From positions 497-64,496 of the forward strand of contig JAAWJI010000015.1 in NCBI GenBank assembly GCA_022796795.1: a DNA stretch of 64,000 nucleotides, in the 5' to 3' direction. The notes below the pieces were generated by a model. It was given only the letters and a program-made list of their open reading frames with translations. It was not told the DNA's origin and did not search any database. Positions within the stretch are counted from its first letter, which is position 1, and each line of letters opens with the position of its first letter. The DNA is from Lachnospiraceae bacterium (GTDB lineage: Bacteria > Bacillota > Clostridia > Lachnospirales > Lachnospiraceae). Positions 39,074-53,792 of this stretch are shown one piece after another. A program made the position numbers and the translations under genes.

Positions 39074-40126
39074 ATGGATATAAAAAAGCGTGACCAAACC
39101 CTGGATGTCATAAAGGGCGTGGCTATTCTTCTGGTCATGGTGGGACATGTACTGAATTTGAATCATATGGAGGATCCCTATTTCTATGATATGATCCGTG
39201 CGGTTCAGATGCCGCTGTTTATGGTGGTCAGCGGGTATCTGTGCGCCATGGGAAGAAAGGCGGAGAGCCTGGCGGATTACGGAAGGGTGATGAAAAGGCG
39301 GGCGATTTCCTATCTGGTGCCCTTTTTTGTGTGGATTGGGGTGCTGTATCCCCTGGAGCTGCCAGGGGCTATCCTGGATACCCTGTTTCATCTGGATTAT
39401 GGCCTGTGGTTTCTGATGACCTTGTTTTTGCTCACAGCTATGGCTTGTACGGCGCAGCTGGCGGCTGGCCGGATAAAAGGAGGAACAGTTCTAAAAGAGC
39501 TGGTTTTCTGGGGAGTCTGGGGGGCAATGGCTGTGTTTGTGTTGTTGGAGACATTGCTAGGCTGGGAATTTTTAAGCCCTTCCCTCACACGCATGTACCT
39601 GCCGTTCTATGCGGCTGGATATGCGGCCGCAGCTTATGGGCCGGGACTTGGGGGAGGTAAGAGAGATTCCCTGTGGAGCAGCCTTCTGGCTGTTGTCTGC
39701 GCAGTTGTATTTCTAGCCCTTGTGATCTGCTATGATCTGGTGGATCTGGGCAGCCCCCAGGCCTTTCTGCGCCAGACTCTGGCCTCCTTTACAGGCTGCT
39801 ACCTGATCTTCTGGTTGTGCCGCCGGTGGCCTGTGGGGAAAAGCAAGGGCTTTTTTGCCTGGCTGGGAGGCTATACCCTGGAGATTTACGCCCTCCACTT
39901 CCATTTTGCCACCCTGCTGAACCGGGGAGGCGCATATGACCTGTATACCTGGCAGGGGGTTTTGTTTGCCCTGGCCTCCTTTGGGGTCATGTGTGGGATT
40001 ACGGCGGCCCTGATCTGGGCGACCAAGAAGCTGTGGATTTTGGATCTGCTGCTCTATGGAAAGAGTCCACGGAAAGAATTGCAAAAAGAGACCCGGGAAG
40101 GCCTGAAAAGGAATTCCGAAAAGTAA
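39074..40126 (+). CDS. acyltransferase family 3 membrane O-acyltransferase
   Basis: N-terminal ...LDVIKGVAILLVMVGHVL... and ...PLFMVVSGYL... motifs with about 10 TM helices. Confidence 0.85.
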   Translation: MDIKKRDQTLDVIKGVAILLVMVGHVLNLNHMEDPYFYDMIRAVQMPLFMVVSGYLCAMGRKAESLADYGRVMKRRAISYLVPFFVWIGVLYPLELPGAILDTLFHLDYGLWFLMTLFLLTAMACTAQLAAGRIKGGTVLKELVFWGVWGAMAVFVLLETLLGWEFLSPSLTRMYLPFYAAGYAAAAYGPGLGGGKRDSLWSSLLAVVCAVVFLALVICYDLVDLGSPQAFLRQTLASFTGCYLIFWLCRRWPVGKSKGFFAWLGGYTLEIYALHFHFATLLNRGGAYDLYTWQGVLFALASFGVMCGITAALIWATKKLWILDLLLYGKSPRKELQKETREGLKRNSEK

Positions 40127-40180
40127 AAGGGGCAGGTGGGGGAGCAAATAAAAGGAACGAACAATTCTGGAGGAATTTTC

Positions 40181-41653
40181 ATGCTGTTTAATTCTCTTCA
40201 TTTTCTTATCTTTTTTCCTGTGGTGGTGCTGGCATATGTGCTGGTGCCTGCAAAGTGCCGCTATCTGTGGCTCTTGGCGGCCAGCTATTATTTCTATATG
40301 AGCTGGAATCCCAGATACGCTATTTTAATCGGAATCTCTACGGCGACTACTTATGGATGTGCTCTTATTCTGGAACGGATTCCCAGGGAGCGCACAGGCG
40401 GCAGAAGATGGTGGATGTTTCTAAGTTTTCTGATTAATATCGGAATTTTGTTTTTCTTTAAATATTTTGACTTTGCCCTGGAAAATGTGAATCGGATTCT
40501 GGGGGCCCTGCACATGACCGTACTGGAAAAGCCCTTTGACGTGTTGCTGCCGGTGGGGATTTCCTTTTACACCTTTCAGGCGCTGGGCTATACCATGGAT
40601 GTGTACCGGGGAGAGATTCCAGCGGAGAAAAATTTGCTGCGCTACGCCCTTTTCGTGTCCTTTTTTCCGCAGCTGGTGGCGGGGCCCATTGAGCGGTCGG
40701 GAAATCTTTTGCGGCAGGTACAGCAGGTGGACCGGTGGCAGCTGTGGGAACCCGGCCGGATCCGGGACGGACTGCTTCTGATGCTGTGGGGATTTTTTCA
40801 GAAGCTGATGATTGCGGACCGGGCTGCTATTGCGGTGAATGCGGTGTATAGTCAGTATCAGGTATTCGGAGGCGGAGAGATTCTGCTGGCCACCCTCTTG
40901 TTTGCCTTTCAGATTTATTGCGATTTTGACGCCTACAGCAATATTGCCAGAGGAGCGGCTGAAGTCTGCGGGTTCCGGCTTATGGTAAATTTTCGCCAGC
41001 CCTATTTTTCCCGGTCTATTGGGGAATTCTGGCGGCGGTGGCATATTTCCCTGAGCAGCTGGTTTCGGGATTACCTGTATATTCCCCTGGGAGGCAGCCG
41101 GGTATCCCCGGTTCGCCACTGGATGAATCTCATGCTTGTATTTTTGGTCAGCGGCATCTGGCATGGGGCAAACTGGCATTTTATCCTCTGGGGAGGTCTT
41201 CACGGAGCCTATCAGGTGCTGGGAAAATGGAAGGACGGATGCTGCGCCTGGCTGGGACAGCGGCTGGGCAGGGATAAGCCCGTAAGGCTTCCCGGGGCGC
41301 TTCGGGTGCTGGTCACGTTTGTCCTGACGGATCTGGCCTGGATGGTGTTTCGGGCCAATTCCCTGGGGGATGTACAGGGACTCTTGAAAGCCATGGTAAG
41401 CTTTCCCGGGTTCCGGGATCCGGCGGGCATGGAGATGGTGCCTGTGGAATGGACGCTTTTGGGCATTTCTCTGCTGGTGCTGCTGGCAGTGGATCTTTTT
41501 CATGCCAGAGGGATTTCTCTGCGGAAAAAGTTGTTGAGTCTGGCGACGCCGGTGCGGGTTTTCCTCTATGCGGCGGGAATCGGAGTGATTTTGGTGTTCG
41601 GCGTCTACGGGGCGGCCTATGATACCAGCCAGTTTTTCTATTTTCAATTCTGA
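40181..41653 (+). CDS. MBOAT family O-acyltransferase (DltB/AlgI/PatA-like)
   Basis: MLFNSLHFLIFFPVVV... N-terminus, ...ISFYTFQALGY..., ...FWRRWHISLSSWFRDYLYIPLGG... and a conserved His in ...SGIWHGANW.... RBS GGAGGA precedes ATG 40181. Confidence 0.9.
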   Translation: MLFNSLHFLIFFPVVVLAYVLVPAKCRYLWLLAASYYFYMSWNPRYAILIGISTATTYGCALILERIPRERTGGRRWWMFLSFLINIGILFFFKYFDFALENVNRILGALHMTVLEKPFDVLLPVGISFYTFQALGYTMDVYRGEIPAEKNLLRYALFVSFFPQLVAGPIERSGNLLRQVQQVDRWQLWEPGRIRDGLLLMLWGFFQKLMIADRAAIAVNAVYSQYQVFGGGEILLATLLFAFQIYCDFDAYSNIARGAAEVCGFRLMVNFRQPYFSRSIGEFWRRWHISLSSWFRDYLYIPLGGSRVSPVRHWMNLMLVFLVSGIWHGANWHFILWGGLHGAYQVLGKWKDGCCAWLGQRLGRDKPVRLPGALRVLVTFVLTDLAWMVFRANSLGDVQGLLKAMVSFPGFRDPAGMEMVPVEWTLLGISLLVLLAVDLFHARGISLRKKLLSLATPVRVFLYAAGIGVILVFGVYGAAYDTSQFFYFQF

Positions 41654-41737
41654 GCGGCCAAAGGAGTCCAAGGGCTTCGTATGCCTGGATTTTTGGCGGT
41701 TGCTGCGGGGAAATTCATTTTGGGAAAGGAAAGAGCT

Positions 41738-42802
41738 ATGAGGGAACAGCATAGAAATAAGAATTTCATACAGGCGGGAAAAGGGATCCTGCAGGTACTG
41801 GCAGTCCTGTTCTTGCTGGGGGCTCTGGTGAAGCTGTGCAATTTCCTGGTGGTGGATGACGCGGATTCCTATACCAGGCTCACCCTCCATGAACTGTACA
41901 CCTGCCAGGAGCCGGTGGAGACCATTTTTCTGGGAAGCTCCCATTGCTTTCGGGCCTACGACCCCACCCTGTATCAGGAACTGACAGGAGAATCGACTCT
42001 GAATCTGGGCTCCTCCTCCCAAAACTATGATACCTCCTACTATCTTCTGCGGGAGGCCGTTTCCTGCCAACCGGTGAAAACCTTGTATCTGGATATGTAC
42101 TGGGCCTTTTTGTACAGCCAGCGGGACGGCAGGGATCTGGTGCAGGCCAATATTATTTCCGATTATATGCGTCCTTCCCTCAATAAGCTGGATTTTGTGC
42201 TTCACATGTCCAGTTCAGAGCATTATACCAACACGGTGTTTCCCTTCCGCCGCAACTGGCGGCTTCTGGGGGATTTGTCCTATATAAGGGAGAATGTGAG
42301 AAAGAAACAGACAGAGGCCTACCGGGCCTATGAGCCGGTGATCAATGAGGAGGAATACTATGGGGGCAGAGGATTTGTCTATTCCACCACCGAATTAAAG
42401 CCGGAGGAGATTACCTGGTGGGAGAAGTTTGGCAAGATTGACCTGAGCGGGGACGACACTTTTATCTGTTCTTATCTGGATCGGATTGCGGCGCTCTGCC
42501 AGGAGCAGGGCATTGAACTGATTTTCGTGACGGCTCCCAGTTATTACCAGTATTTGGATGTGGTGGGCCCCTATGACCCGGCTCATGAGCGGATTTTGGA
42601 GCTTGCGGAAAAATATGGCGTGCCCTATCTGGATTTCAACCTGTGCAAAGAGGAGTATTTGGGGCTTTCGGCAGCGGATTATATGGATGTGGATCACCTG
42701 AACGGAGCAGGAGCCGAGAAGCTTACAAAAACCCTGGCAGAGCTTAGAAATGACCCTTCTTTGATTGACGAATATTTTGTATCGTGTTATGATGTACGGT
42801 AG
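41738..42802 (+). CDS. DltD/AlgJ/PatB-like SGNH-fold partner protein of the MBOAT (N-terminal TM anchor)
   Basis: Signal-anchor helix, ...IFLGSSHCFRAYDP... (block I Ser-like) and C-terminal ...DVDHLNGAGAEKLT (DxxH block). It lies directly downstream of the MBOAT gene. Confidence 0.6.
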   Translation: MREQHRNKNFIQAGKGILQVLAVLFLLGALVKLCNFLVVDDADSYTRLTLHELYTCQEPVETIFLGSSHCFRAYDPTLYQELTGESTLNLGSSSQNYDTSYYLLREAVSCQPVKTLYLDMYWAFLYSQRDGRDLVQANIISDYMRPSLNKLDFVLHMSSSEHYTNTVFPFRRNWRLLGDLSYIRENVRKKQTEAYRAYEPVINEEEYYGGRGFVYSTTELKPEEITWWEKFGKIDLSGDDTFICSYLDRIAALCQEQGIELIFVTAPSYYQYLDVVGPYDPAHERILELAEKYGVPYLDFNLCKEEYLGLSAADYMDVDHLNGAGAEKLTKTLAELRNDPSLIDEYFVSCYDVR

Positions 42803-42930: not shown

Positions 42931-44028
42931 ATGTGTATGAAAATCATGCCGAACCGCATGGACCGGGGGTTTGCCATGCATCAAAAGGAATATGAGGAGA
43001 AGGCCCTTCAGGTACTGCGCTCGGGCTGGTATGTGCTGGGACAGGAGGATCAGGGCTTTGAGACGGAATTTGCGGCCAAGCTTGGAGCAAAGCACTGCGT
43101 GGGCCTGGCAAGCGGTCTGGACGCCCTGTGGATTGCTTTCCGGGTGCTGGGGATCGGAGCCGGGGATGAGGTAATCGTGCAGGGAAATACCTACATTGCC
43201 AGCGTCATGGGGATTACCATAAACGGAGCTACGCCTGTATTTGTAGAGCCGGATGAATACTATAATATGGACGCGGCCAAAATCGAGGAGAAGATCACAA
43301 AGCGCACCAAGGCCATACTGGTGACGCATCTCTACGGACAGGCCAGCAAGATGGACGACGTGACGGCTCTGACGAAAAAATATGGGCTTCGTCTGGTGGA
43401 GGACTGCGCCCAGTCCCATCTGGCAGGCTTTGAAGGAAAGATGACGGGAACCTTCGGGGACGTGGGCTGCTTCTCCTTTTATCCCTCCAAGAATCTGGGA
43501 GCCTTTGGAGAGGGAGGAGCCGTGCTGGTAGAGGATGACAAGCTGGCGGAAGAATTCCGGATTTTCCGGAATTATGGAAGCGAAAAGCGCTACTATAATA
43601 AGGTGGTGGGAACCAATTCCCGGCTGGATGAGCTGCAGGCAGGTCTTCTTAGGGTGCGGCTGTCCCATCTGGAGGAGATTACACAGGAGAGGTGCAGGAT
43701 CGCAGAGCGCTATCTTAAGGAAATCCAGAATCCCCGTCTGATTCTGCCCCGGGTACGGCCAGGCGCTACCAGCGTGTGGCACCAGTTTGTCCTGCGCTGT
43801 GAGGACCGGGAGGAATTGATCGCTTATTTGAATGAGCGGGAGATCGGCACCATTATCCACTATCCGATTCCGCCTCATTTATCCCAGGCATACGGATATC
43901 TGGGACATAAAGAGGGATTTCTGCCCATCACAGAGCAGTATGCCCGGCAGGTGCTTTCCATTCCCATGTACAACGGCATGACAGAGGTGGAACAGTCCTA
44001 TGTGATTGAGGCGCTGAACCGGTTTTAA
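42931..44028 (+). CDS. DegT/DnrJ/EryC1/StrS family PLP-dependent sugar aminotransferase
   Basis: ...VLRSGWYVLGQE..., ...VTHLYGQ... and ...FSFYPSKNLGAFGEGGAV... (PLP-Lys region). The start may be 42931 or 42937. Confidence 0.9.
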   Translation: MCMKIMPNRMDRGFAMHQKEYEEKALQVLRSGWYVLGQEDQGFETEFAAKLGAKHCVGLASGLDALWIAFRVLGIGAGDEVIVQGNTYIASVMGITINGATPVFVEPDEYYNMDAAKIEEKITKRTKAILVTHLYGQASKMDDVTALTKKYGLRLVEDCAQSHLAGFEGKMTGTFGDVGCFSFYPSKNLGAFGEGGAVLVEDDKLAEEFRIFRNYGSEKRYYNKVVGTNSRLDELQAGLLRVRLSHLEEITQERCRIAERYLKEIQNPRLILPRVRPGATSVWHQFVLRCEDREELIAYLNEREIGTIIHYPIPPHLSQAYGYLGHKEGFLPITEQYARQVLSIPMYNGMTEVEQSYVIEALNRF

Positions 44029-44054
44029 TTATGCAAAGAGAAACAGGAGTTCGT

Positions 44055-44477
44055 ATGAATATCAAGAAACAATATCAGATTCTGGAATTTGGCGACCTGG
44101 GAGACGAGCGGGGGCAGCTGGTGGTGGTAGAGGGAGAGAAGGACATTCCCTTTGAGATCCAGCGGGTATTTTATATATATGGATCGGATTCTCAGGTGAT
44201 CCGGGGCCAGCACGCCAACCGGAAATCAGAGTTCGTGCTTATTAATGTAAGCGGAACCAGCAAGGTACGGGTGGATAATGGCTTTGAGGAGGACATTATT
44301 GAGCTGAACCGGCCCCGCATGGGTCTGTATCTGCCCACGATGCTGTGGAAGGATATGTATGATTTCAGTGAGGATTCCGTGTTGCTGGTGTTGACCAACA
44401 CCCATTATGACGGCAGTGAGTATATTCGGGATTATGAGGAGTATCTGAGGGAAGTGGGAGGAACGAGGAAGCCATGA
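44055..44477 (+). CDS. FdtA/WxcM-type sugar 3,4-ketoisomerase (cupin), stand-alone
   Basis: ...GDERGQLVVVEGEKDIPFEIQRVFYIY...RGQHANRKSEFVLI...LYLPTMLWKDMYDFS... matches the dTDP-4-keto-6-deoxyhexose 3,4-isomerase family. There is no fused acetyltransferase domain (140 aa). Confidence 0.8.
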   Translation: MNIKKQYQILEFGDLGDERGQLVVVEGEKDIPFEIQRVFYIYGSDSQVIRGQHANRKSEFVLINVSGTSKVRVDNGFEEDIIELNRPRMGLYLPTMLWKDMYDFSEDSVLLVLTNTHYDGSEYIRDYEEYLREVGGTRKP

Positions 44478-45415
44478 GCAAAATATCCATTGTAGTTCCT
44501 GTATATTGGAATTCCGATACCCTGATGCTTCTCTATGAGGACATGAGGGAGAAAATTCTGCCCAAGCTTGGGGATTACGAGATTGTCTTTGTGGACGACG
44601 GTTCCGGAGATAACTCCTGGGAAATCATGAACCAGATCCGGGAGATGGACAACCGGGTCAAGCTTGTCAGGCTTTCCCGGAATTTTGGGGAGCATGCGGC
44701 CATTCTGGCAGGGCTTTCCCAGTGTACAGGAGACTGTGCGGTGACCAAGCAGGCGGATCTTCAGGAGGACTCAGAGCTGATTCTGGAGATGTATGAGAAG
44801 TGGAAGCAGGGAAATAAGGTAGTGCTGGCAGTTCGCTCCGACCGGGACGAGGGGCCGGTACAGAAGTTTTTTGCCAATCTCTATTATACTCTTATGCGCA
44901 AGCTGGTGATCAAGGACATGCCTAAGGGGGGCTTTGACTGCTACCTTTTGGATCGGCAGGTGATCCAGGTGCTGCTGATGCTGGATGAGAAAAATTCCGC
45001 CCTGACCCTGCAGGTGCTTTGGGTGGGCTTCAAGAGCGACAAGGTATATTTCCACCGGAAGGCCAGGGAGATCGGAGAGTCCCGCTGGACTCTGTCGAAA
45101 AAGGTGAAGCTGGTGCTGGACTCCATGATGAGCTTTTCCTATTTTCCCATCCGCTTTATGTCCGGACTGGGAGTGCTGTTTGCGGTGGTGGGTGTGATTT
45201 GGGCCATTGTTCTCATGGTACAGCGCATGATTGGTGTGGAGGACGTGGCAGGATGGACCTCTATGATGGTGTTGATGCTGTTTTCCTTCGGGGTGATTAT
45301 GGTGATGCTGGGCCTGTTGGGCGAGTACATCTGGCGTGCCCTGGACGCATCCCGGAACCGGCCTCCGTTTCTGGTGGACGAGACCCGGGGATTTGAAAAA
45401 GAAGAGGATCAATAA
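44474..45415 (+). CDS. GT2 polyprenyl-phosphate glycosyltransferase (GtrB/ArnC/CsbB architecture), copy 1
   Basis: ISIVVPVYWNS, VFVDDGSGDNS, LSRNFGEHAA and ADLQED motifs. The C-terminal double-TM hairpin ends ...LLGEYIWRALDASRNRPPFLV. ATGA overlap with the isomerase gene. Confidence 0.85.
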   Translation: MSKISIVVPVYWNSDTLMLLYEDMREKILPKLGDYEIVFVDDGSGDNSWEIMNQIREMDNRVKLVRLSRNFGEHAAILAGLSQCTGDCAVTKQADLQEDSELILEMYEKWKQGNKVVLAVRSDRDEGPVQKFFANLYYTLMRKLVIKDMPKGGFDCYLLDRQVIQVLLMLDEKNSALTLQVLWVGFKSDKVYFHRKAREIGESRWTLSKKVKLVLDSMMSFSYFPIRFMSGLGVLFAVVGVIWAIVLMVQRMIGVEDVAGWTSMMVLMLFSFGVIMVMLGLLGEYIWRALDASRNRPPFLVDETRGFEKEEDQ

Positions 45416-46731
45416 TGAAGAAAGAGAGAAGGGCAGGGAACATGCTGCTGGTCCTTTTGGCCTGCGGAGCATTTGTATTCCTTGCCTGTCATTTTTTTAA
45501 TAATCGCTGGCAGCTGAATCCCTATGATAGCCGCTACCGGAACTGGCAGCTGGATTCCGAGCAGCTGGTGATGGACAAGATTATGGATGCCAGAAGCCAT
45601 GGGATTGGCAACTACAATGGCATGCTGCTGGATTACCAGCAGCAGATCGGCTTTGCAGGAATTCTGTTTTCCGTGGTGGATAAGCTGGCGGACCGCCAGG
45701 CGGATCTCCTGAAACCCATTCCTAAGGATCTCATGTGCGCCTTGAATGTGCTGGTGTTTACGGCGCTGTTTTTTGTATTCTTATACTGGCTGTACCGGGA
45801 GTTTGGCCTTTGGACTGCCGGAGGGGTTTATGTAACGACGCTTTTCACTCACTGGATGGGATTTACGGTGAAGAATCTCTATTGGGTGACCTGGACCATG
45901 CTGCTGCCCATGATAGCCTTGCTTTTGCTTCTTATGTGGGAGGAGCATAAGGGAGCGCGAAGAGACGGATGGCTTTTCGGCCTGTCCTTTCTCACGATCT
46001 TTCTGCGCAGCGCCTGCGGTTATGAGTTTATCAGCTGCGTCATGGTGGCCCTGGAGCTGCCGGTGATCTATTATGCCATCAAACAGGAATGGGGAATAAA
46101 AAAGTATCTGCAAAGAGCAGGGAAGGCCGGTCTGGGAGCCCTGGCAGGCTTCGCCGTAGCTCTGTTTGTGAATTTGGCCCTTATGGCCGGATTGAAGGGC
46201 TGGAAGGGCGCGCTGGATTATCTGATTTTTGTCAGCGCCCGGCGAACCGGGTATGCCACTCTGGAGGGCTTTGACGCAGATGTGCTGGCCTCTTTTCAGG
46301 TGCCTCTTTCCCAGGTGATTCAGTCTTACTGGAGGGGAGACCCTACCTGTGTGCTCTTTGGGGCCTGGGGACTAAGCGTGCTGGTGCCTTTGTTTTTCCT
46401 TTTGGGAGCAGCCATGATTTTGACCCTGTATTTTCGAAAAAAAGCACGTGGAAATCCGGCCATGGCCACCCAAGCTTCTCAAAGGGAGAAGGCCGGGGAG
46501 CGAAAGATGCTGGCACTTTTGGCTGTCATGGCAGTGTCCCTTCTGGGTCCTTTGTCATGGCTTGTGCTGGCCAAGGGACATGCGGTGCACCATCAGCATA
46601 TTGACTATGTGATCTTCTGCCTGCCCTTTACCATGCTGGGCTTTGCCTCCGTGGCTCAGGAGCTGAAATGCTGGGCGCTATGGCTTATGGAGCGTGTGAA
46701 AGCCGGGAAAAGGAAGGAAGAAAGCGTCTGA
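45415..46731 (+). CDS. uncharacterised polytopic membrane protein (438 aa)
   Basis: About 10 hydrophobic segments and no motif I can assign. The start overlaps the stop of the GT2 gene (TAATG). Confidence 0.6.
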   Translation: MKKERRAGNMLLVLLACGAFVFLACHFFNNRWQLNPYDSRYRNWQLDSEQLVMDKIMDARSHGIGNYNGMLLDYQQQIGFAGILFSVVDKLADRQADLLKPIPKDLMCALNVLVFTALFFVFLYWLYREFGLWTAGGVYVTTLFTHWMGFTVKNLYWVTWTMLLPMIALLLLLMWEEHKGARRDGWLFGLSFLTIFLRSACGYEFISCVMVALELPVIYYAIKQEWGIKKYLQRAGKAGLGALAGFAVALFVNLALMAGLKGWKGALDYLIFVSARRTGYATLEGFDADVLASFQVPLSQVIQSYWRGDPTCVLFGAWGLSVLVPLFFLLGAAMILTLYFRKKARGNPAMATQASQREKAGERKMLALLAVMAVSLLGPLSWLVLAKGHAVHHQHIDYVIFCLPFTMLGFASVAQELKCWALWLMERVKAGKRKEESV

Positions 46732-46777
46732 GGATGGACGAAAGGATCAAAACAGGTGGAGGGAAAGGGCCGGGAAG

Positions 46778-48922
46778 ATGAGAGGTTTTGGAAAAAATAT
46801 AGACAGTCGGAAATATCTGGATCCTTTTATCTGCGGCTGTATGGGGGCGGTTGTGTTTTTGCTGCTCTTTGGAACAGAAACGCTTTGTGTGACCTGTGAC
46901 AAGTGGATTCTGAAAGGATATGTGGAGGAGGACATCATTCAGCACTATACAGGCTGGATGGCCTTTCGGGATTCCGCCTGGAGCTTTCCTCTGGGCCTTT
47001 CGGGGAATCTGGGATATCCCACGGGCACGGCCATCTCCTTTACGGATTCCCTGCCCCTGATTTCCATTCTTTTTAAATGCATCTCCGGAATCTTGCCGGA
47101 AACCTTTCAGTTTTTCGGCTGGTATATTCTTTGCTGTTATGTGCTGCAGGGAATTTCCTCCAGCCTTTTCGTCCGGCTATTTACGAAAAATCCCTGGGGC
47201 GTCTATGGTTCCAGCCTGCTGTTTACGTGCTCACCGATTCTGCTGGAACGGGCATTCCGCCATACGGCCCTTGCGTCCCAGTGGCTGATTTTGTTTGCCC
47301 TGTATCTGTATTTCCGGGCGCGAAGAAGCGGGCGTTTGCCCTGGGGCTTTCTGGCGCTTCAGGCGCTCTGCGTGGGGATTCATCCCTATTTTGTGCCCAT
47401 GGTGTGCGGGATCCTGGCTGCCTGGACTCTGGAGGGAATGCTGCCGGGGGCTGGCTGGAGGAAGGAAGCTGCCGGCAGGGCTTTGGGACTGGCCGGACAG
47501 ACAGAGTCTGTGTCCGGGATGGAAAAGCTGGCCGGTAAGGCAGCCTGCGGATTGTTTTTCCTGGGGAATCTGCTGGTTGTGGCCGCTACCGGGTATGTAT
47601 TGGGGTTATTCGGAAGCGGTGTGTCTGGTTCGGCGGGCGGATTCGGGTATTATTCCATGAATCTCAACGCCCTGTGGAATCCGGTTAGCTTGGGAATGGA
47701 GAAGTGGTCTGGGATTTTTCCGGCGCTTCCCCAGATCAACGGCAATTATGACGGCTTTAACTACCTGGGAGCAGGGGTACTGTTGTTTGCAGGAGCAGGC
47801 ATTCTGGGAAAACTGGGAAGACTGGTGGGAGAGAAGAAATTAGGAGCTTTTTGTAAACGCTATATGGGGCTGCTTCTCTTTTGCGCCTTCTGTACCTTAT
47901 TTGCCTGGAGCCATGTAATCACCTGGGGGAGCCGGGAGCTTTTCACCCTGCCTTTGCCCCAGACTGTGCAGGGGCTGTGCTCCATTTTTCGCGCCAGCGG
48001 GCGTATGTTCTGGCCGGTCTATGAGCTATTGTTTCTCATTGCCTGCCTTGGGGCTGTGCGCCTGCCGGGAGTCCTGAAAAAGCGGCTTGGACATGAGGGA
48101 AATGAAAAGGTTTCCGGATTCAAAGGCCGGTTGCCAATCAGACGGATGATACCGGGAGCAATGACTGTGCTTTTGCTCCTGCAGCTATTTGATCTGACCC
48201 CGGCCTTTGCCTGGAAGCATGCCTCCATGGATGGGGAGTATCCGGGAACCGGAAGCTATCACCCGGAGTTTTATGAGTCAGAGGATTGGCAGCAGGTGCT
48301 GGGAGCCTATGAGCGGACAGAGCTTCTGAACTATCATCATGACTACAACCTGGCGGCATTTTTGATGAAGCATCACCAGAAATCCAATATACTTCCTGCC
48401 AACCGGGGAGATTTTGGGGCGGCCAAGGAGCGGTGCGAGGAGATGATTCTGGAGCTGTACCAGGGCGGAGATATGGAGGAGCAAGTGCTCTATGTGACCA
48501 ATGATCCTTTGCTGGCTGACCAGCTGGCCGGGAAGCTTTCGGAGAATCTGACGGCATACGACCTGGGAGAATACACAGGCTTTGGACGGATCCGGCAGGA
48601 TGTGACGGCCAAAGGCTTTGCTCCGGAGAGAGAGACGGGAGGATTTGCCGTGATTGCGCCGGACAGCCCGGACTGGAATTATCTGCGGGCGGCAAAGGAT
48701 AATGAGCTTGTGTTCCCCTCTACTGCGGCTCTGGAGTGGGAGCTTTCCCAGGCGAAAGGGCTTATGATGGGGCAGGAATCTATGGAAATCACGGGCATGG
48801 AAATTTATTCCAATGAATATATCCGGGATTATGCATATGTGCAGTGTCCAGAAGGCGCGGATCTCACAGCGTGGAGGCAGGCGAAAGGCATTCGGATCAT
48901 TCCCCAGGATGAGGCAGAGTGA
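46778..48922 (+). CDS. large polytopic membrane protein (714 aa), putative GT-C-like glycosyltransferase (DUF6311-like from memory, unverified)
   Basis: N-terminal ~470 aa is multi-TM with loop motif ...QHYTGWMAFRDSAWSFPLG...TDSLPLISILFK...FQFFGWY.... The C-terminal ~240 aa are soluble. RBS GGAGGGAAAGGG lies upstream. Confidence 0.55.
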   Translation: MRGFGKNIDSRKYLDPFICGCMGAVVFLLLFGTETLCVTCDKWILKGYVEEDIIQHYTGWMAFRDSAWSFPLGLSGNLGYPTGTAISFTDSLPLISILFKCISGILPETFQFFGWYILCCYVLQGISSSLFVRLFTKNPWGVYGSSLLFTCSPILLERAFRHTALASQWLILFALYLYFRARRSGRLPWGFLALQALCVGIHPYFVPMVCGILAAWTLEGMLPGAGWRKEAAGRALGLAGQTESVSGMEKLAGKAACGLFFLGNLLVVAATGYVLGLFGSGVSGSAGGFGYYSMNLNALWNPVSLGMEKWSGIFPALPQINGNYDGFNYLGAGVLLFAGAGILGKLGRLVGEKKLGAFCKRYMGLLLFCAFCTLFAWSHVITWGSRELFTLPLPQTVQGLCSIFRASGRMFWPVYELLFLIACLGAVRLPGVLKKRLGHEGNEKVSGFKGRLPIRRMIPGAMTVLLLLQLFDLTPAFAWKHASMDGEYPGTGSYHPEFYESEDWQQVLGAYERTELLNYHHDYNLAAFLMKHHQKSNILPANRGDFGAAKERCEEMILELYQGGDMEEQVLYVTNDPLLADQLAGKLSENLTAYDLGEYTGFGRIRQDVTAKGFAPERETGGFAVIAPDSPDWNYLRAAKDNELVFPSTAALEWELSQAKGLMMGQESMEITGMEIYSNEYIRDYAYVQCPEGADLTAWRQAKGIRIIPQDEAE

Positions 48923-48994
48923 GAAAAAGCTGTTCAGGCAGAACAAAGAGGGGCCATGGGACGGAAGCAGGAAGGAAATCAGGTAGGAGAGGTT

Positions 48995-49945
48995 ATGGAG
49001 AAGATATCAATTATTGTGCCCTGCTATAATGAAGAGGAGGCTGTTCCCCTGTTTTATCGGGAGATCTGCAGGGTATTTCAGGAGATCCCTGATATAGAAT
49101 TGGAGCTGATCTTTGTAAATGACGGATCCCGGGACGGTACCCTAAAGGTGGTAAAGGGGCTGGCGTCCCAGGATACCCGGGTGAAATACGTGGGCTTATC
49201 CCGGAATTTCGGGAAAGAAGCTGGTATGTATGCGGGGATGAGCTATGCATCTGGGGATTATGCGGCTATTATGGATGTGGATCTGCAGGATCCTCCTGCC
49301 TTGCTGCCAGAAATGCTGCGCAGTATCCGGGAGGAAGGCTATGACTGTGTAGCCACCCGCCGGGTGAGCCGCAAGGGGGAACCGCCCATACGCTCGCTGT
49401 TTGCCCGAATCTTTTACCGCATGATGCACCGCATATCCAGCACCGAGATCGTGGATGGAGCCCGGGACTACCGGCTCATGACCCGTCAGTTTGTGGGAGA
49501 GATCCTGCGCCTGGGAGAATACAACCGGTTTTCCAAGGGGCTGTTTGGCTGGGTGGGCTTTGAGACAAAATGGCTGGAATATGAAAATGTGGAGCGGGTA
49601 GCAGGAGAGACGAAGTGGTCTTTTTGGAAGCTGCTTTTGTACAGTATTGAGGGAATCGTGGGGTTTTCTACGGCGCCTCTGGCCTTTTCGGCCTTTTTGG
49701 GCGTATTTTTCTGCCTGGTGGCTTTTCTGGCCATTTGTTTTATTATAGTGCGAACCATGCTTTACGGGGACCCGGTGTCAGGTTGGCCTTCTATGGTGTG
49801 TATTATGGTATTTATTGGAGGGATCCAGCTTTTTTGCATCGGGATTGTGGGAGAATATTTGGCGAAGACTTATTTAGAGACCAAAAGACGGCCCATTTTT
49901 ATCTGCAAAGAAACCAATGTAGACAGTGGAGATAATAAAGAATAA
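48995..49945 (+). CDS. GT2 polyprenyl-phosphate glycosyltransferase (GtrB/ArnC/CsbB architecture), copy 2
   Basis: Canonical ISIIVPCYNEEE, IFVNDGSRDGT, LSRNFGKEAG and MDVDLQDPP motifs. C-terminal double-TM hairpin with ...GIVGEYLAKTYLETKRRPIF. RBS GGTAGGAGAGG precedes ATG 48995. Confidence 0.85.
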   Translation: MEKISIIVPCYNEEEAVPLFYREICRVFQEIPDIELELIFVNDGSRDGTLKVVKGLASQDTRVKYVGLSRNFGKEAGMYAGMSYASGDYAAIMDVDLQDPPALLPEMLRSIREEGYDCVATRRVSRKGEPPIRSLFARIFYRMMHRISSTEIVDGARDYRLMTRQFVGEILRLGEYNRFSKGLFGWVGFETKWLEYENVERVAGETKWSFWKLLLYSIEGIVGFSTAPLAFSAFLGVFFCLVAFLAICFIIVRTMLYGDPVSGWPSMVCIMVFIGGIQLFCIGIVGEYLAKTYLETKRRPIFICKETNVDSGDNKE

Positions 49946-50031: not shown

Positions 50032-50982
50032 ATGCAAACCGCATTAGTGGGATATACGGGCTTTGTAGGTTCCAACCTGGCAAAGACCCATGAATTTACA
50101 AAGCTGTACAATTCAAAGAATATCAGGGAAGCCATGGGCTTGGCCCCTGATTTGCTGGTTTACGCAGGGGTGCGGGCGGAAAAGTTTCTGGCCAACCAGG
50201 AGCCCGGGCGGGATCTGGCGTCGGTGCAGGAGGCGTTTTCCAATATACGGGGAATCCGGCCCCAAAAGCTGGTGCTGATCTCCACCATCGACGTATTCCA
50301 AAGGCCCGTGGAGGTGGATGAGGAAACTCCCGTGGAGGAAAAAAATCTGCAGCCTTATGGGGCCAATCGGTACAGGCTGGAGCAGCAGGTGCGGGAGGAA
50401 TATCCGGATGCTCTGATTGTACGGCTGCCGGGGCTTTACGGGGAAAATCTGAAAAAGAATTTCATCTATGATTTGATCCATGTGATTCCATCCATGCTGC
50501 GGGAGGAAAAATACCAGGAGCTTGAAATTCGTGAGAAGCTGCCCTTCCCCTGCTATGAGAAGCAGGACAATGGGTTCTATAAGTGTCGAAAGCTTGATGC
50601 CCGTGAGGAGGAGAAGCTTAAGGAGTATTTTAAGCGCCAGGATTTTTCCGCCTTGCATTTTACGGACAGCCGCAGCGTGTTTCAGTTTTATCCCTTGTCC
50701 TTGCTGTGGGGACATATCGAGAAGGCGCTTGCGCTGGATCTTCGGCTTTTGCATCTGGCTACGGAGCCTTTGGAGGCGGGGGAGCTTTACAAAGAGCTGA
50801 CTGGAGAGGAATTTGTGAATCATACGACACAGACGCCGGCCTTATATGATTACCGCAGCAGGTATGCCGGAGGGCTTGGGGGCGCCGGGGGGTATGTGCT
50901 GGATCGAGAATTTCTGGTGGAGGACATCAAGCGGTATGTGAGGGAGGAAAACAACAAACATGGGAAGAGCAGGCATGAGTGA
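50032..50982 (+). CDS. NAD(P)-binding Rossmann-fold epimerase/reductase-like protein (extended SDR-like)
   Basis: N-terminal VGYTGFVGSNL glycine motif and a mid-protein PYGANRYRLE segment resembling the YxxxK region of RmlD/GalE-type enzymes. Confidence 0.65.
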   Translation: MQTALVGYTGFVGSNLAKTHEFTKLYNSKNIREAMGLAPDLLVYAGVRAEKFLANQEPGRDLASVQEAFSNIRGIRPQKLVLISTIDVFQRPVEVDEETPVEEKNLQPYGANRYRLEQQVREEYPDALIVRLPGLYGENLKKNFIYDLIHVIPSMLREEKYQELEIREKLPFPCYEKQDNGFYKCRKLDAREEEKLKEYFKRQDFSALHFTDSRSVFQFYPLSLLWGHIEKALALDLRLLHLATEPLEAGELYKELTGEEFVNHTTQTPALYDYRSRYAGGLGGAGGYVLDREFLVEDIKRYVREENNKHGKSRHE

Positions 50983-52015
50983 CGGATATAAGCCGCCCTT
51001 TACAATGACAGAGGAGATCACGAATCTTGTAATTGAGATTGGCGAGAAGGTGGGGGCTGTGGCAGCCTGCAGTGTCTTACAGCCAAATCCCAAGCTGCGC
51101 CGTGAGAACAGAATCAGATCCATTCATGCAACTCTTGCTATTGAACAAAATACGCTTACCCTGGGACAGGTGACGGATGTGATAAACGGAAATACTGTAC
51201 TGGGACCACCGCAGGACATCCATGAAGTAAAAAATGCTTATGAAGCATACGAGAGAGTATCGTCGCTTGATCCTTACAGTGTGAAAAATCTGCTATTGGC
51301 TCATAAGATCATGATGGAAGGGCTGGTTAAAGAGGCAGGAAGATTCAGAAGCAAAAATGTAGGAGTGTATGCGGGAAAGCAGTTGATCCATGCAGGTTCC
51401 CCGGCGAACTATGTGCCGGATCTGATGAGACAGCTTTTTGACTGGCTGAGGAAATCCAAGCTTCATCCCCTGGTGAAGTCCTGCGTCTTCCATTACGAAT
51501 TTGAATTTATTCATCCTTTTGCAGATGGAAACGGACGCACAGGAAGACTGTGGCAGTCATTGATTCTGCAGAAATGGAAGGAATTCTTTGCCTGGATGCC
51601 CATGGAAAGTCTGATTTATGCAAAGCAGGAAGGATATTATCAGGCCCTTAACGCGTCGAACAGGGCAGGGGAATCTACCATCTTTGTTGCGTTTATGCTT
51701 GAGGTGATTCGGGATGCGCTGAGGGATATAGTAGAAAGTCAGAACAAACCGGCGGATGTGGGAGAAAATGTCGGTATAAATGTCGGTATAAATGTGGGAG
51801 AAAATGTCGGTATAAAGATCGGAACAAACGAGGAGAAGGTGGTGACGCTGCTCAGGCAGGATAGCAGATTAACCGCTAAAACTCTGGCTTCCACACTGGG
51901 ACTGACAGATAGACAGGTGGAGAGGATTTTGTCGAAACTGAAAGCGGATGGGAAAATAGTCCGGCATGGGGCAAGCAAAAATGGATATTGGGAAGTACGA
52001 AAGGATAGAATATGA
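50960..52015 (+). CDS. Fic family protein (AMPylase-type Fic domain with C-terminal wHTH)
   Basis: Canonical Fic motif HPFADGNGRTGR, an N-terminal Fic_N-like region with SIHATLAIEQN, and a C-terminal wHTH (LTAKTLASTLGLTDRQVERILSKLKADGKIV). The start is 50960 (RBS GGGAGGAAAA) or 50975. Either start overlaps the upstream gene. Confidence 0.9.
   Translation: MGRAGMSDGYKPPFTMTEEITNLVIEIGEKVGAVAACSVLQPNPKLRRENRIRSIHATLAIEQNTLTLGQVTDVINGNTVLGPPQDIHEVKNAYEAYERVSSLDPYSVKNLLLAHKIMMEGLVKEAGRFRSKNVGVYAGKQLIHAGSPANYVPDLMRQLFDWLRKSKLHPLVKSCVFHYEFEFIHPFADGNGRTGRLWQSLILQKWKEFFAWMPMESLIYAKQEGYYQALNASNRAGESTIFVAFMLEVIRDALRDIVESQNKPADVGENVGINVGINVGENVGIKIGTNEEKVVTLLRQDSRLTAKTLASTLGLTDRQVERILSKLKADGKIVRHGASKNGYWEVRKDRI
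51758..51829 (+). repeat. in-frame 12-nt tandem repeat (6 units) inside the Fic gene
   Basis: GTGGGAGAAAAT GTCGGTATAAAT GTCGGTATAAAT GTGGGAGAAAAT GTCGGTATAAAG ATCGGAACAAAC encodes VGEN VGIN VGIN VGEN VGIK IGTN. Confidence 0.85.
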
Positions 52016-52022: not shown

Positions 52023-52814
52023 CTATGGATGATAGGCGCCCCTCATATTTTGGAACAGAATTTTCAGAAGCTCGGAATTTCCCCTGAAAAAACTGATTTT
52101 GGTTGGCGTTTTCTGTCCCCGGGGATAGACACGGGTAACGGGAACCTCGCAGGCGCGAAGCCCCAGCTGGGAGGCGCGCACAGAGAGATAGGCCAAAAGC
52201 TCATAGCCCATGAATATTTCCCGGAAGGGCTGCACATGGGGATGGGTCAGGTAGCGCCGGGAATAGGCACGGAAGGCGTTGGTGGTATCCGTGAAGCGCT
52301 GGCGGGCAGTGAGGGAAATCACCGGGGCGTGGAGCAGCACCACGGAGAAAAAGCGCACCGGCGGCGTATGGACGCCACGTCCTCCCTTGATAAAGCGGGA
52401 ACCCTGGACAAAGTCATAACCCTGCTCCAGTTTTTCAAGAAAACGGGGGATATCCTCGATGCTGTCCTTGTTGTTACCGTCCACGGTCAGCACGCCCTTG
52501 TAGCCCCTCTCCAGGGCCCACCAAAATCCCATGCGGAGCTGGGCTCCCTGCTTTCCCACGTCCTCCTTTACCAGGAGCGTGTTCACCCCCAGGGAACGGA
52601 GCAGATCCTCCTGGGTGGATCCGTCGGTGGAACCGCCGTCGCAGAGAATGATGTCCACCAATTTGTGAACGCCGTATTTTTTTGCCCGCTTCAGTTCTTT
52701 CTGAATGCGGCTGTTTTCGTTTATAATGGGGATACACACACAGTAATCCCGCTGTTTGGGAGCGTATTCCTCCGCTCGAAAGCGGGGAACGCCTGGTTGT
52801 TTTTCATAGATCAT
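52023..52814 (-). CDS. GT2 glycosyltransferase, soluble (DPM1/GpgS-like, no TM)
   Basis: ...CVCIPIINE..., ...ILCDGGSTDGS... and ...LTVDGNNKD... (DxD-like). ATG 52814 is preceded by GAGGTG. The track start at 52967 was rejected. Confidence 0.8.
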   Translation of the reverse strand: MIYEKQPGVPRFRAEEYAPKQRDYCVCIPIINENSRIQKELKRAKKYGVHKLVDIILCDGGSTDGSTQEDLLRSLGVNTLLVKEDVGKQGAQLRMGFWWALERGYKGVLTVDGNNKDSIEDIPRFLEKLEQGYDFVQGSRFIKGGRGVHTPPVRFFSVVLLHAPVISLTARQRFTDTTNAFRAYSRRYLTHPHVQPFREIFMGYELLAYLSVRASQLGLRACEVPVTRVYPRGQKTPTKISFFRGNSELLKILFQNMRGAYHP

Positions 52815-52884: not shown

Positions 52885-53712
52885 CTAGGCAAACAGAGCG
52901 CGGGTCCTATGCAGGATCTTGGAAAGCTCCTCCAGAGAATCAAGCCTGCCCATCTCAACAGAAACATAGCCTTTCCAGCCTTTGGTCTCCCAGGCGTCCT
53001 GCGTCAGGGATGCAAGCTCCCGGTGAAGCTTCTCGTGGGACTCCTTAAGAGGAATCAGGTTGGGCTCGCTGATATGGATATGATTGACAAAGGGAAGCCA
53101 CTGGGGGAAGCTGGAAAGGGATTCCTGATTTTCAATCATAGTCCCCAGATCCAGGTTGACCGCAAAACCGGCTTTGTGGGATGCATCCAGAATGGAACGA
53201 ATTTGCGCGGCCAAATCGCAGGCCTGATCCGTGGTATTGATGAAATTGGTGTGATAGATAGGCGGATTAGGCTCCATGGAAAGAGTGACGCCCCGCTCTG
53301 CCCCATAGGCCCCCAGTTCCCGGAAAAAGTCCAAAACCGGCTCCAGGGGAGCTCCCTGGGGCCGCTGCCTGTTCCTGGGACTGCCGAAAACCAGATTGGG
53401 ACAGCCAATGGCAGCAGCAAAATCAATGGCCTGTCGGGTATAATCCAGCAAAGACAGGCGCTCCTCCATGGTTCCGAAAAGGCTCTCTTTTCGTCCATAC
53501 CAGATAGACTGCATGGAACAGACAGAAAGACTATATGTGTCATACAAAGAGCAGGCAAAAGCCTTGGCTTCCTTAATCCTGGCATAAGGCTGCTCCGGAA
53601 AAATCCGTGTAGGGGCGATCTCCAGCCCGGTAAATCCAAGCTTCTGCAGAAGAGAATAGACAGCCTCATCCATTTCAGAGCTCCAGGCAATATTGGAAAC
53701 AGATAAATTCAT
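52885..53712 (-). CDS. sugar phosphate isomerase/epimerase (xylose isomerase-like TIM barrel, AP_endonuc_2 family)
   Basis: 275 aa. MNLSVSNIAWS...GFTGLEIAP..., ...NLVFGSP..., ...LSMEPN... and ...HIHISE... pattern typical of this fold. RBS AAGAGG lies upstream. Confidence 0.8.
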   Translation of the reverse strand: MNLSVSNIAWSSEMDEAVYSLLQKLGFTGLEIAPTRIFPEQPYARIKEAKAFACSLYDTYSLSVCSMQSIWYGRKESLFGTMEERLSLLDYTRQAIDFAAAIGCPNLVFGSPRNRQRPQGAPLEPVLDFFRELGAYGAERGVTLSMEPNPPIYHTNFINTTDQACDLAAQIRSILDASHKAGFAVNLDLGTMIENQESLSSFPQWLPFVNHIHISEPNLIPLKESHEKLHRELASLTQDAWETKGWKGYVSVEMGRLDSLEELSKILHRTRALFA

Positions 53713-53792
53713 GGGTGCGCCTCTTTTCCTTTTTCCCTACATCCTACCATTTTTCCGTTGAATATTCAACCTCAAAATGGTATGCTAGTAAA

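Follow-up and report, generated by a model that had tools for sequence, protein, structure and literature searches.

In the 64,000-nt stretch of Lachnospiraceae DNA analyzed here (contig JAAWJI010000015.1 of assembly GCA_022796795.1; the whole stretch is called the window below), six plus-strand genes between positions 42931 and 49945 raise the question of whether they form a single pathway, which loads an amino sugar onto a lipid carrier and transfers it outside the membrane, and whether the amine of this sugar stays free. An earlier note, made from the sequence alone, had described them as one Arn-like module. The six open reading frames (ORFs) that it listed, with their coordinates and their ATGA and TAATG overlaps, were confirmed by the ORF list, by Pfam matches, and by direct reading of the sequence. 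The reading that we favor, with somewhat better than even confidence, is that the region is a composite, in which two modules for the decoration of surface glycans, A and B, are interleaved in this Lachnospiraceae lineage, and that the first three genes, which are a cassette within module A, feed the lipid carrier.

The first cassette gene (42931..44028, +) codes for a DegT-family aminotransferase (DegT_DnrJ_EryC1, E-value 6.6e-107), which is of the QdtB/FdtB type of 3-aminotransferases acting on 3-keto-6-deoxyhexoses linked to deoxythymidine diphosphate (dTDP). Its nearest solved structure is that of QdtB (3frk; 370 bits, E-value 9e-110, residues 20–364), the next best are C3 aminotransferases of the WlaRG and DesV types, and ArnB reaches ∼130 bits. 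The protein carries the motif SFYPSKNLG with its lysine, as expected for a C3 aminotransferase of the QdtB/FdtB kind that depends on pyridoxal phosphate. The second gene (44055..44477, +) codes for a stand-alone 3,4-ketoisomerase of the FdtA/QdtA/WlaRA type (Pfam FdtA, E-value 4.8e-44). Its ORF opens at 44031, while the start at 44055 has an AGGAG sequence 7 nt upstream and is also the one picked by gene callers. In the PDB the isomerase matched QdtA (120 bits), WlaRA (113 bits), and FdtA (104 bits), and it keeps the first catalytic histidine of the FdtA/QdtA cupin family. With 140 amino acids (aa) and no acetyltransferase domain, it is not a bifunctional protein of the WxcM type; WxcM-like proteins align to it via their isomerase domain only (residues 177–298 of 312). 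The branch leading to a dTDP-3-amino-3,6-dideoxyhexose, which the two genes are predicted to encode, is well supported by these matches. The signals for the configuration at C4 are split. The overall similarity points to QdtA and QdtB (gluco), while the H-A-N motif of the active site and the Lys at position 97 of QdtA agree with WlaRA, which was named TDP-fucose 3,4-ketoisomerase by its depositors, so the two sets of signals would correspond to 3-amino-3,6-dideoxyglucose (Qui3N) and to 3-amino-3,6-dideoxygalactose (Fuc3N), respectively. In a Pfam scan of the window, which covered both strands and every ORF from 110 aa upward (123 in total), neither RmlA nor RmlB was found, and the sole NTP_transferase matches were GlgC and GlgD.

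The third cassette gene (44474..45415, +), called here GT2a, codes for a GtrB-type polyprenyl-phosphate glycosyltransferase of family 2 (GT2; Glycos_transf_2, E-value 1.6e-23). Its residues 3–308 align full-length with residues 27–333 of Synechocystis GtrB (sll0501; 183 bits), and ArnC aligns at 140 bits. The NCBIfam scores of 202 bits for PgfS and 162 bits for ArnC were both under the cut-offs, and GT2a shares the fold and the topology of ArnC without being its orthologue. Transmembrane segments and C-terminal hairpins were called by hydropathy, which placed a double-transmembrane hairpin at residues 231–249 and 264–282 of GT2a. Such hairpins are also present in two further GT2s of the region, GT2b and GT2c, in agreement with what had been noted earlier for GT2a and GT2b, and GT2a has the GT-A domain, juxtamembrane helices, and hairpin that characterize a Gtr-type synthase. 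Direct reading of the sequence showed that the isomerase stop and the GT2a start share an ATGA at 44474–44477, and that the GT2a stop overlaps the start of the next gene, called here M438, in a TAATG at 45413–45417.

To see how these genes are arranged in other species, relatives of GT2a were sought in one genome per species, which gave 403 stretches, and the best 80 loci were fetched (71–92% identity; nearly all labeled Lachnospiraceae or unclassified Clostridia). The gene order at these loci was determined by tblastn with the window proteins, and ±10 kb were inspected around each triad, by which we mean the DegT aminotransferase, the FdtA-type isomerase, and GT2a; loci are given by the labels of this analysis (L and a number). 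The data showed that the triad is present in essentially all of these loci (a coupled triad in 80 of 80), while every other gene varies. The aminotransferase is 66–86% identical where it was detected, and in 61 of 76 loci GT2a starts before the isomerase gene has ended (−4 or −8 nt). The conservation of the triad and of this overlap is strong evidence that what the aminotransferase and the isomerase make is used by GT2a. The surroundings of the cassette are of at least five different kinds. Directly after GT2a there is a GtrA-family gene (PF04138, 1.7e-25) in L040, L041, L043, and L076, or, in L044 and L045, a gene for a membrane protein of 780 aa that weakly matches the Pfam family PTPS_related, while in ∼13 loci, referred to as type II triad loci, GT2a is followed by a Wzx-like gene and then by a gene for a 515-aa polytopic protein. 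A GtrII-type transferase gene (PF14264, 2.3e-46) is inserted between the DegT and FdtA genes in L052 and L055, RmlA- and RmlB-like genes lie in the triad locus in L047, L056, and L077, and RmlD adjoins DegT in four loci (L044–L046 and L049). Given the coupled triad and such flanks, the earlier proposal that the three genes are one unit holds, and judging from sequence the cassette probably provides a 3-amino-3,6-dideoxyhexose donor linked to polyprenyl phosphate. Sugars of this class are otherwise known from S-layer glycans and O-antigens.

These loci also bear on a different explanation, in which GT2a is an ordinary GtrB that uses a hexose linked to uridine diphosphate (UDP), the aminotransferase and the isomerase feed cytoplasmic glycosyltransferases, and the adjacency is a coincidence of operon packing. 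Many triads indeed have the neighbors of a Wzx/Wzy-type cluster, namely Wzx-like genes, a WbaP-type initiating transferase, and glycosyltransferases of families GT4 and GT2, and the best solved-structure alignment of GT2a is to an enzyme using UDP-glucose (UDP-Glc). On the other hand, the triad is the only unit that stays invariant among changing neighbors, the overlapping stop and start are kept, and the type I loci described below, including the window, leave no cytoplasmic glycosyltransferase for the dTDP-amino sugar besides GT2s of the polyprenyl-phosphate type. Additionally, the subfamily of GT2a is separate from the DAD-type GtrB, ArnC, and PgfS enzymes and has fusions to a DegT aminotransferase and to an acetyltransferase. 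We regard the explanation by an ordinary UDP-hexose enzyme as very improbable.

The GT2a subfamily was defined by a search of 1.84 billion representatives, with motifs counted in ∼147 top ones (P0261–P0410). At the position of the DxD motif (D94-x-D96 in GtrB) GT2a has Q93-A-D95, and its clade-invariant motif KQADLQED (window 44750–44770, residues 93–98) corresponds to DADLQD in GtrB. The residues specific to the clade are the Gln at the GtrB D94 site, E73 (within RNFGEHAA), and E98. According to a recent paper on GtrB, the first Asp of the motif (D94) would act as the catalytic base of both GtrB and ArnC, and it was termed universally conserved. The search showed a large GtrB-like subfamily around GT2a without this Asp, with the consensus S/A-A-D-L-Q-D-P-P and counts of 57 SAD, 35 AAD, and 9 DAD. 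In the wider subfamily this position is occupied by S, A, G, or T, while Gln is peculiar to the GT2a clade. The initial impression that Q-A-D is unique to GT2a was overturned by these counts, because the first Asp is generally absent from the wider subfamily, and when compared with it only the Gln and Glu73 stand out as clade-specific. A GtrB-like subfamily with Ser, Ala, Gln, Gly, or Thr in place of the first Asp runs counter to the description of this residue as universally conserved. Two natural fusions involve GT2s of this subfamily: one joins the GT2 to a DegT aminotransferase (P0345, 689 aa), and the other joins it to a PglD-type acetyltransferase with a left-handed beta-helix (LbH) fold (P0383, 544 aa). 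These fusions tie the GT2a subfamily to amino-sugar donors. It is a matter of speculation whether Gln93, E73, and E98 of GT2a contact the C3 ammonium group of the sugar.

The next two genes code for large membrane proteins, which the earlier note had counted as members of the same pathway. M438 (45415..46731, +) is a polytopic protein of 438 aa without any Pfam or NCBIfam family, for which a homologue search gave 20 clusters only. Its AlphaFold2 model, made with a 17-sequence alignment, had a predicted local distance difference test score (pLDDT) of 80 and a predicted TM-score (pTM) of 0.86. The top PDB matches of this model in Foldseek were ALG12, ALG9, AglB, Pmt1/2, DPY19, AftA, and ArnT, and they were weak (best E-value 1.3e-2, TM-score 0.47). 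The second protein (46778..48922, +) has 714 aa and a C-terminal extracytoplasmic domain, and belongs to the Pfam family DUF6311 (1.8e-36). Its model (pLDDT 87, pTM 0.90) best matched STT3B (6s7t; E-value 4.5e-5, probability 1.0, TM-score 0.42), with AftB, ALG12, and Pmt4 lower. The invariant residues of DUF6311 are D41 near the N terminus, which the model puts within a short helix (42–45) coming after the first long one, as well as E157 and R158. A natural fusion of a GT2 with DUF6311 also exists (P0175, 887 aa), and a literature search on DUF6311 found nothing directly relevant. The models suggest that both proteins are GT-C-like, as the earlier note had thought possible, and neither resembles Wzx, Wzy, or an O-antigen ligase. 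The fold alone does not set the donor used by M438 and DUF6311, while the synteny described below points to synthases of their own module.

If all six genes at 42931–49945 formed one pathway, M438 or DUF6311 or both would transfer the 3-amino sugar that GT2a loads onto undecaprenyl phosphate (Und-P). This possibility is favored by the overlap of the GT2a stop with the M438 start, by the lack of a convincing terminator in 42931–52015, by the GT-C-like folds, and by the fact that a second species (L016), which is the nearest relative, keeps the arrangement. However, L016 is the only one of the 80 loci in which M438 and DUF6311 abut the triad, there in the interleaved order of the window, and the two genes were not near the triad in the remaining 79. 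Moreover, in Candidatus Merdisoma (L011, positions 10001–18327) M438 (61% identity) and DUF6311 (59%) are followed by genes for an RmlD-like protein, GT2d, an AP_endonuc_2 protein, a DAO-family protein, and GT2c, in the same order as in the window, with no triad within 10 kb. Similarly, in the actinobacterium Blastococcus (L013, positions 10001–19414) a 25%-identical relative of M438 adjoins an unassigned 801-aa protein, with DAO, RmlD-like, AP_endonuc_2, a 52%-identical GT2d, and GtrA further along, and again without the triad. The DUF6311 relatives found elsewhere are also not linked to the triad, and in the common arrangement it is GT2b that adjoins GT2a. In view of these data a single six-gene pathway appears improbable, and the assignment of the 438-aa and 714-aa proteins to the cassette was abandoned in favor of a separate module, which occurs elsewhere without the triad.

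In the composite reading this separate unit, module B, is predicted to cover 45415–48922, 50032–50982, and 52023–55852, and to consist of M438, DUF6311, the RmlD-like protein, GT2d, AP_endonuc_2, DAO, and GT2c. The RmlD/epimerase-like gene (50032..50982, +) gave weak RmlD_sub_bind and Epimerase matches, and its counterparts are 66% identical in L011, where the gene lies 3′ of DUF6311, and 30% identical in Blastococcus. GT2d (52023..52814, −) is a soluble GT2 resembling DPM synthase, PpgS, and AglJ (NCBIfam AglJ 48 bits, PpgS 40 bits), with no transmembrane segment. It is 83% identical in L011 and 52% identical in Blastococcus, where the GtrA gene adjoins it. It is followed by a gene for a TIM barrel protein of AP_endonuc_2/xylose isomerase type (52885..53712, −; Pfam from precomputed gene calls), which is conserved in L011 and L013 and has remote matches to the epimerase IolO and to xylose isomerase. 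The DAO-family oxidoreductase (53715..54929, +; Pfam DAO 1.9e-13), which would use flavin adenine dinucleotide (FAD), is 77% identical in L011 and 32% identical in L013, and has no close solved structure. The last member, GT2c (54926..55852, +), is a divergent GtrB-type GT2 (PgfS 73 bits full-length) with a transmembrane hairpin at 235–253 and 265–283, and it lies 3′ of DAO also in L011 (76% identity). Searches of PDB sequences with the DAO, AP_endonuc_2, and RmlD-like proteins gave marginal matches only. The combination of an FAD oxidase, a reductase resembling short-chain dehydrogenases/reductases (SDR), lipid-phosphate synthases, and GT-C proteins recalls the epimerization of a lipid-linked sugar by DprE1/DprE2, although the protein families are unrelated. 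The idea that module B is a pentofuranose three-component system of the Citrobacter type was rejected, because the synthase families differ. GT2c and GT2d, as well as two GT-C-type proteins encoded at 57103–58698 (+) and 58706–60877 (−), lie beyond the genes considered in the earlier note. As a lesson for the method, the partners were mis-assigned when translational coupling in a single genome served as the guide, and comparative synteny redrew the boundaries of the modules.

The other genes of the region belong to module A, which judging from synteny would cover 39074–45415, 48956–49945, and 55866–60877. In L009 and ∼25 other loci, which are of type I, the order is AT3-MBOAT-X373-triad-GT2b-GDSL-PMT_2, followed on the opposite strand by the TIGR03766-like gene, and neither M438 nor DUF6311 is present, which suggests that this is the ancestral array. 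The array of the window itself is also present in independent assemblies, with identical loci in several of them, so it did not arise by chance. At its 5′ side are genes for a membrane acyltransferase of the Acyl_transf_3 family (AT3; 39074..40126, +; Pfam 1.3e-24), a DltB/AlgI-like MBOAT acyltransferase (40136..41653, +; Pfam MBOAT 2.5e-24), and an extracytoplasmic protein, called here X373 (41681..42802, +), which has one N-terminal transmembrane segment and no Pfam family. AT3 is present in 35 of the 80 triad loci, in 29 of these at most 6 kb from GT2a, and in several different contexts. MBOAT was found in 26 loci, and it scored 138 bits against the DltB cut-off of 375, while the gene calls up to 10 kb from it included no DltA, DltC, or DltD. 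X373 is always paired with MBOAT (23 of the 80 loci, type I arrays only), and by analogy to DltD, PatB, and AlgJ it is a candidate for a new MBOAT partner in acyl transfer.

On the 3′ side of the cassette the second GtrB-type polyprenyl-phosphate glycosyltransferase, GT2b (48956..49945, +; Glycos_transf_2, E-value 3.5e-32), has a canonical DVD motif and a transmembrane hairpin at 247–265 and 280–298. Its NCBIfam scores were 323 bits for PgfS (cut-off 500) and 135 bits for ArnC. The earlier note had correctly seen a second GtrB-type enzyme here and placed it at the end of the module, while in most relatives it directly follows GT2a (76% identity in L009, 74–81% in most type I loci). Next in the array of type I loci, 3′ of GT2b, is a membrane-anchored GDSL/SGNH protein (55866..57083, +; Lipase_GDSL_2, E-value 9.5e-7) with a single N-terminal transmembrane segment, which is present in 24 of the 80 loci. 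The PMT_2-type GT-C protein (57103..58698, +; Pfam PMT_2 3.5e-9) is present in 26 of the 80 triad loci, including L042 and L076. Its GT-C class assignment rests on the PMT_2 and PMT Pfam matches, and the ArnT and Agl23 matches are weak (ArnT 27.8 bits versus a cut-off of 567). The last protein (58706..60877, −) has 723 aa and 13 transmembrane segments and is related to the XrtG-associated glycosyltransferase TIGR03766 (90 bits, E-value 1.7e-25; precomputed Pfam CHIM_prot PF27792, after which it is also called CHIM). It is present in 26 of the 80 loci, and a 31%-identical paralogue is the only recognized large membrane candidate near the triad and GtrA in L040 and L043. The transferases of module A are likelier to be encoded at 57103–60877, beyond the 42931–49945 stretch, because the ancestral array places PMT_2 and the TIGR03766-like protein there. 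The PMT_2 protein is likely the transferase for a lipid-linked sugar of module A, and the TIGR03766-like protein is a candidate for the second one. These two proteins are the polytopic GT-C-type partners that a Gtr-type synthase would be expected to have nearby, with M438 and DUF6311 being GT-C-like by fold. In total the region encodes four polyprenyl-phosphate-type GT2s, three of them with hairpins, and four GT-C-like proteins.

The pathway that would follow from the composite reading starts with RmlA and RmlB encoded elsewhere, which would make dTDP-4-keto-6-deoxyglucose. The isomerase and the QdtB-type aminotransferase would convert it into dTDP-3-amino-3,6-dideoxyhexose, the hairpin-anchored GT2a would move the amino sugar onto Und-P, and after flipping a GT-C-type enzyme would add it to a wall polymer or to a surface protein. 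GT2b would make a second Und-P-linked sugar, the PMT_2 and TIGR03766-like proteins would be the ancestral partners, and AT3, MBOAT with X373, and the GDSL protein would serve for acyl modification. Module B would have donor synthases of its own, and likewise two GT-C-like transferases. Regarding the acceptor, a TarF-like glycerophosphotransferase gene (37632–38834, −) and a TagA/WecG-family gene (61818–62606, +) bracket the region. Their presence suggests that a teichoic-acid-type polymer made nearby could be the acceptor, while the PgfS match of GT2b means that it may be a protein rather than a polymer.

Whether the amine of the sugar is free depends on N-acyltransferases. In the window the Hexapep and other LbH models matched two of the 123 ORFs, which are GlgC (5–706, cut by the window start) and GlgD (703–1821), so the statement in the earlier note that the window has no LbH sugar N-acetyltransferase is borne out. 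A naive hexapeptide search would flag GlgC and GlgD (5–1821) as acetyltransferase candidates. A search of all ORFs with a hexapeptide regular expression, which is an insensitive approach, gave no candidate, and a score for LbH periodicity was dropped, since it left GlgC and GlgD inseparable from membrane proteins. In the fetched loci the neighbors of the triad were clustered and the representatives annotated. Among 129 unannotated representatives from the 80 loci, scanned for families matched by at least two of them, no Hexapep or GNAT family recurred. Apart from GlgC and GlgD the window has no Hexapep or GNAT protein, and an N-acetyltransferase of the QdtC/FdtC (LbH) kind or an N-formyltransferase, with which the Qdt and Fdt pathways end, was neither present in it nor recurrent among these neighbors in 80 species.

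It has to be considered, however, that an unlinked acetyl- or formyltransferase N-acylates the sugar in the cytoplasm before GT2a acts, so that the final sugar is neutral, such as 3-acetamido-3,6-dideoxyglucose (Qui3NAc) or 3-acetamido-3,6-dideoxygalactose (Fuc3NAc), as in the O-antigen branch of Xanthomonas. To our knowledge, all characterized routes to lipid-phosphate-linked amino sugars load an N-acylated sugar, with ArnC taking the formylated form. We know of no characterized lipid-carrier amino-sugar route, among those for Arn, Francisella galactosamine, Bordetella glucosamine, and mycobacterial galactosamine, that does not use a cycle of acylation and de-acylation. The fusion of a GT2a-subfamily member with a PglD-type acetyltransferase (P0383), the bifunctional WxcM of the Xanthomonas region, and the span of the inspection, which was ±10 kb around each triad, also leave room for N-acylation. 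On the other hand, an acyltransferase dedicated to a dTDP-3-amino sugar would have no other obvious use, and the cassette moves among its contexts without any N-acyltransferase. Furthermore, in related systems an acyltransferase is part of the isomerase protein (WxcM) or of the GT2 protein (P0383), which is not so in the cassette. Because of the last two points we lean slightly, on modest evidence, toward loading of the sugar with an unacylated amine by a GT2a that accepts the free-amine dTDP-sugar, and regard prior N-acylation as the less probable but a serious possibility. The stronger proposal, that a Q-A-D enzyme of the GtrB family with E73 and E98 loads free-amine dTDP-3-amino-3,6-dideoxyhexose onto Und-P with no acylation and de-acylation cycle at all, is a tentative one, and we consider it rather unlikely. 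As to later modification, AT3, which occurs at 35 of the 80 loci, would by precedent O-acylate the sugar, and extracytoplasmic N-acylation would be a possible alternative. If free-amine loading is true, it would mean either a cationic decoration of the wall or of proteins in hundreds of gut Lachnospiraceae species, or N-acylation outside the membrane by the co-located AT3 or MBOAT.

Several observations weigh against the composite reading as formulated here. The family assignments, folds, synteny, and gene coupling are observed, while the dTDP donor of GT2a, the Und-P carrier, the pairing of GT-C enzymes with donors, and the acceptor are all inferred from sequence. GT2a lacks the first DxD Asp, the proposed catalytic base in GtrB and ArnC, although this loss is common in its subfamily. 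The fold match of M438 is weak, as the Foldseek values given above show, and the window has no flippase candidate, as it contains neither Wzx nor a match to a GtrA hidden Markov model built from the neighbors of GT2a orthologues. The ±10 kb inspected around each triad also set the scope of the statement on N-acyltransferases, and an unlinked enzyme could be encoded elsewhere in the genome. Additionally, M438 is translationally coupled to GT2a in the window, so M438 or DUF6311 may have been co-opted for the amino sugar in this lineage. Finally, Candidatus Merdisoma species carry the triad at another locus (L026 and L027), which implies that module B could act in trans on the product of the cassette.

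The comparison with known systems helps to place the cassette. By analogy, the closest precedent is region 3 of the Xanthomonas campestris wxc locus (wxcK–wxcO), which encodes the WxcK aminotransferase, the WxcL GT2, the WxcM isomerase/acetyltransferase, WxcN, and WxcO, and which is genetically tied to branching with Fuc3NAc. In Xanthomonas the Fuc3NAc side branches are added to the rhamnan O-antigen after the synthesis of the main chain, and wxcK and wxcN mutants lose the branch. As in the loci studied here, a DegT aminotransferase, an FdtA-type isomerase, a GT2, and membrane proteins are combined. In contrast, the Xanthomonas system serves the lipopolysaccharide of a Gram-negative bacterium and has an N-acetyltransferase fused in WxcM, while here the isomerase stands alone and no acetyltransferase is linked to it. 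The earlier remark that a dTDP donor would be unusual for a GtrB-type enzyme was overstated, because it overlooked wxcK-L-M-N-O. A literature search on WlaRA/WlaRB and on Und-P-linked Qui3NAc or Fuc3NAc found nothing directly relevant.

The description of the region as Arn-like stands as a functional analogy. The Arn pathway also has a DegT aminotransferase, a GtrB/ArnC-type Und-P glycosyltransferase, and an extracytoplasmic GT-C enzyme, and GT2a matches ArnC over its full length at 140–162 bits. However, no NCBIfam equivalog cut-off for an Arn protein was reached. The aminotransferase reached 187 bits for ArnB, less than one-third of the cut-off of 631, GT2a and GT2b reached 162 and 135 bits for ArnC against 529, and ArnT scored 28 bits against 567. 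Counterparts of ArnA, ArnD, and ArnE/F are absent: in the 29.6–62.6-kb part of the window there was neither Formyl_trans_N nor Polysacc_deac_1, with one unlinked Polysacc_deac_1 ORF upstream of 29.6 kb. Moreover, Arn uses a UDP-pentose, while the sugar here would be a dTDP-6-deoxyhexose, and lipid A is an impossible acceptor in a Gram-positive bacterium.

The three-component Gtr systems, which are GtrA/GtrB/GtrC of Shigella and Salmonella phages and CsbB/GtcA/YfhO and GacI/GacL of Firmicutes, share with the cassette the combination of a hairpin-anchored GtrB-type synthase and a polytopic transferase, and GT2a orthologues lie beside GtrA in four loci and beside a GtrII-family protein in two. 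They differ in that their characterized members use UDP-Glc or UDP-N-acetylglucosamine (UDP-GlcNAc), while GT2a lacks the first DxD Asp and is tied to a dTDP-amino-sugar branch, and in that the window has no GtrA. Close homologues of the isomerase and the aminotransferase are found in the Qdt pathway of Thermoanaerobacterium thermosaccharolyticum (QdtA/B/C), the Fdt pathway of Aneurinibacillus thermoaerophilus (FdtA/B/C), and WlaRA/RB/RG of Campylobacter jejuni. The Qdt and Fdt sugars, after N-acetylation or N-formylation, are used by cytoplasmic glycosyltransferases, while here the third gene codes for a lipid-phosphate GT2. In the Pgf system of Streptococcus mutans (PgfS, PgfM1, PgfE, and PgfM2), which serves protein O-glycosylation, the common features are PgfS, the best curated match of GT2b, and a PMT_2-type GT-C, although the PgfS score stays under its cut-off. 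Lastly, the pentofuranose system of Citrobacter youngae consists of a polyprenyl-phosphoribose synthase, a MATE flippase, a GT-C of family GT136, and an optional SDR epimerase. It resembles the cassette in the extracytoplasmic addition of side chains from a lipid-phosphate donor and in the flippase of the MOP superfamily, as the type II triad loci have GT2a, the Wzx-like gene, and the polytopic gene in tandem. The synthase family and the sugar differ, however.

If the cassette works as proposed, it would represent a widespread, previously uncharacterized decoration of surface glycans in a dominant family of gut commensals, given the ∼400 stretches found with one genome per species, and the gene is abundant in gut metagenomes. 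It would also add dTDP-6-deoxy-amino sugars to the UDP-hexoses that GtrB-type enzymes accept as donors, and it would offer a tractable Gram-positive counterpart of the Fuc3NAc branching route of Xanthomonas. A free amine would additionally provide a novel means of putting positive charge on the Gram-positive envelope, with a bearing on resistance to cationic peptides, on phage receptors, and on host recognition.

Some further observations concern the surroundings of the two modules. A gene for a Fic/HTH protein (50960..52015, +; Pfam Fic 8.3e-23), which belongs to neither pathway, is a strain-variable insertion: in L003 (16481–17007), L006, and L007 it is swapped for a YafQ/MazE toxin–antitoxin pair in a locus that is otherwise identical. 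The site, which has the RmlD-like gene on one side and GT2d on the other, is bounded by a strong bidirectional terminator-like hairpin at 52009–52049 and appears to be a small hot spot where selfish genes insert. Two of the fetched loci, labeled Alistipes onderdonkii (L037) and Bulleidia sp. (L033), contain the Lachnospiraceae type I array with GT2a identities of 84–85%. As the first label belongs to Bacteroidota and the second to a genus of Erysipelotrichaceae, contamination in the binning of metagenome-assembled genomes is the likeliest explanation, rather than transfer. Upstream of the glycan region a BlaI/BlaR1-like pair (Penicillinase_R and Peptidase_M56) is encoded at 35617–37580, and in an unrelated contig (L096, 5042–6815) a DUF6311 gene is immediately preceded by a comparable pair. 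Possibly GT-C genes are repeatedly coupled in their regulation to the sensing of envelope stress, but the two occurrences may also be a coincidence.

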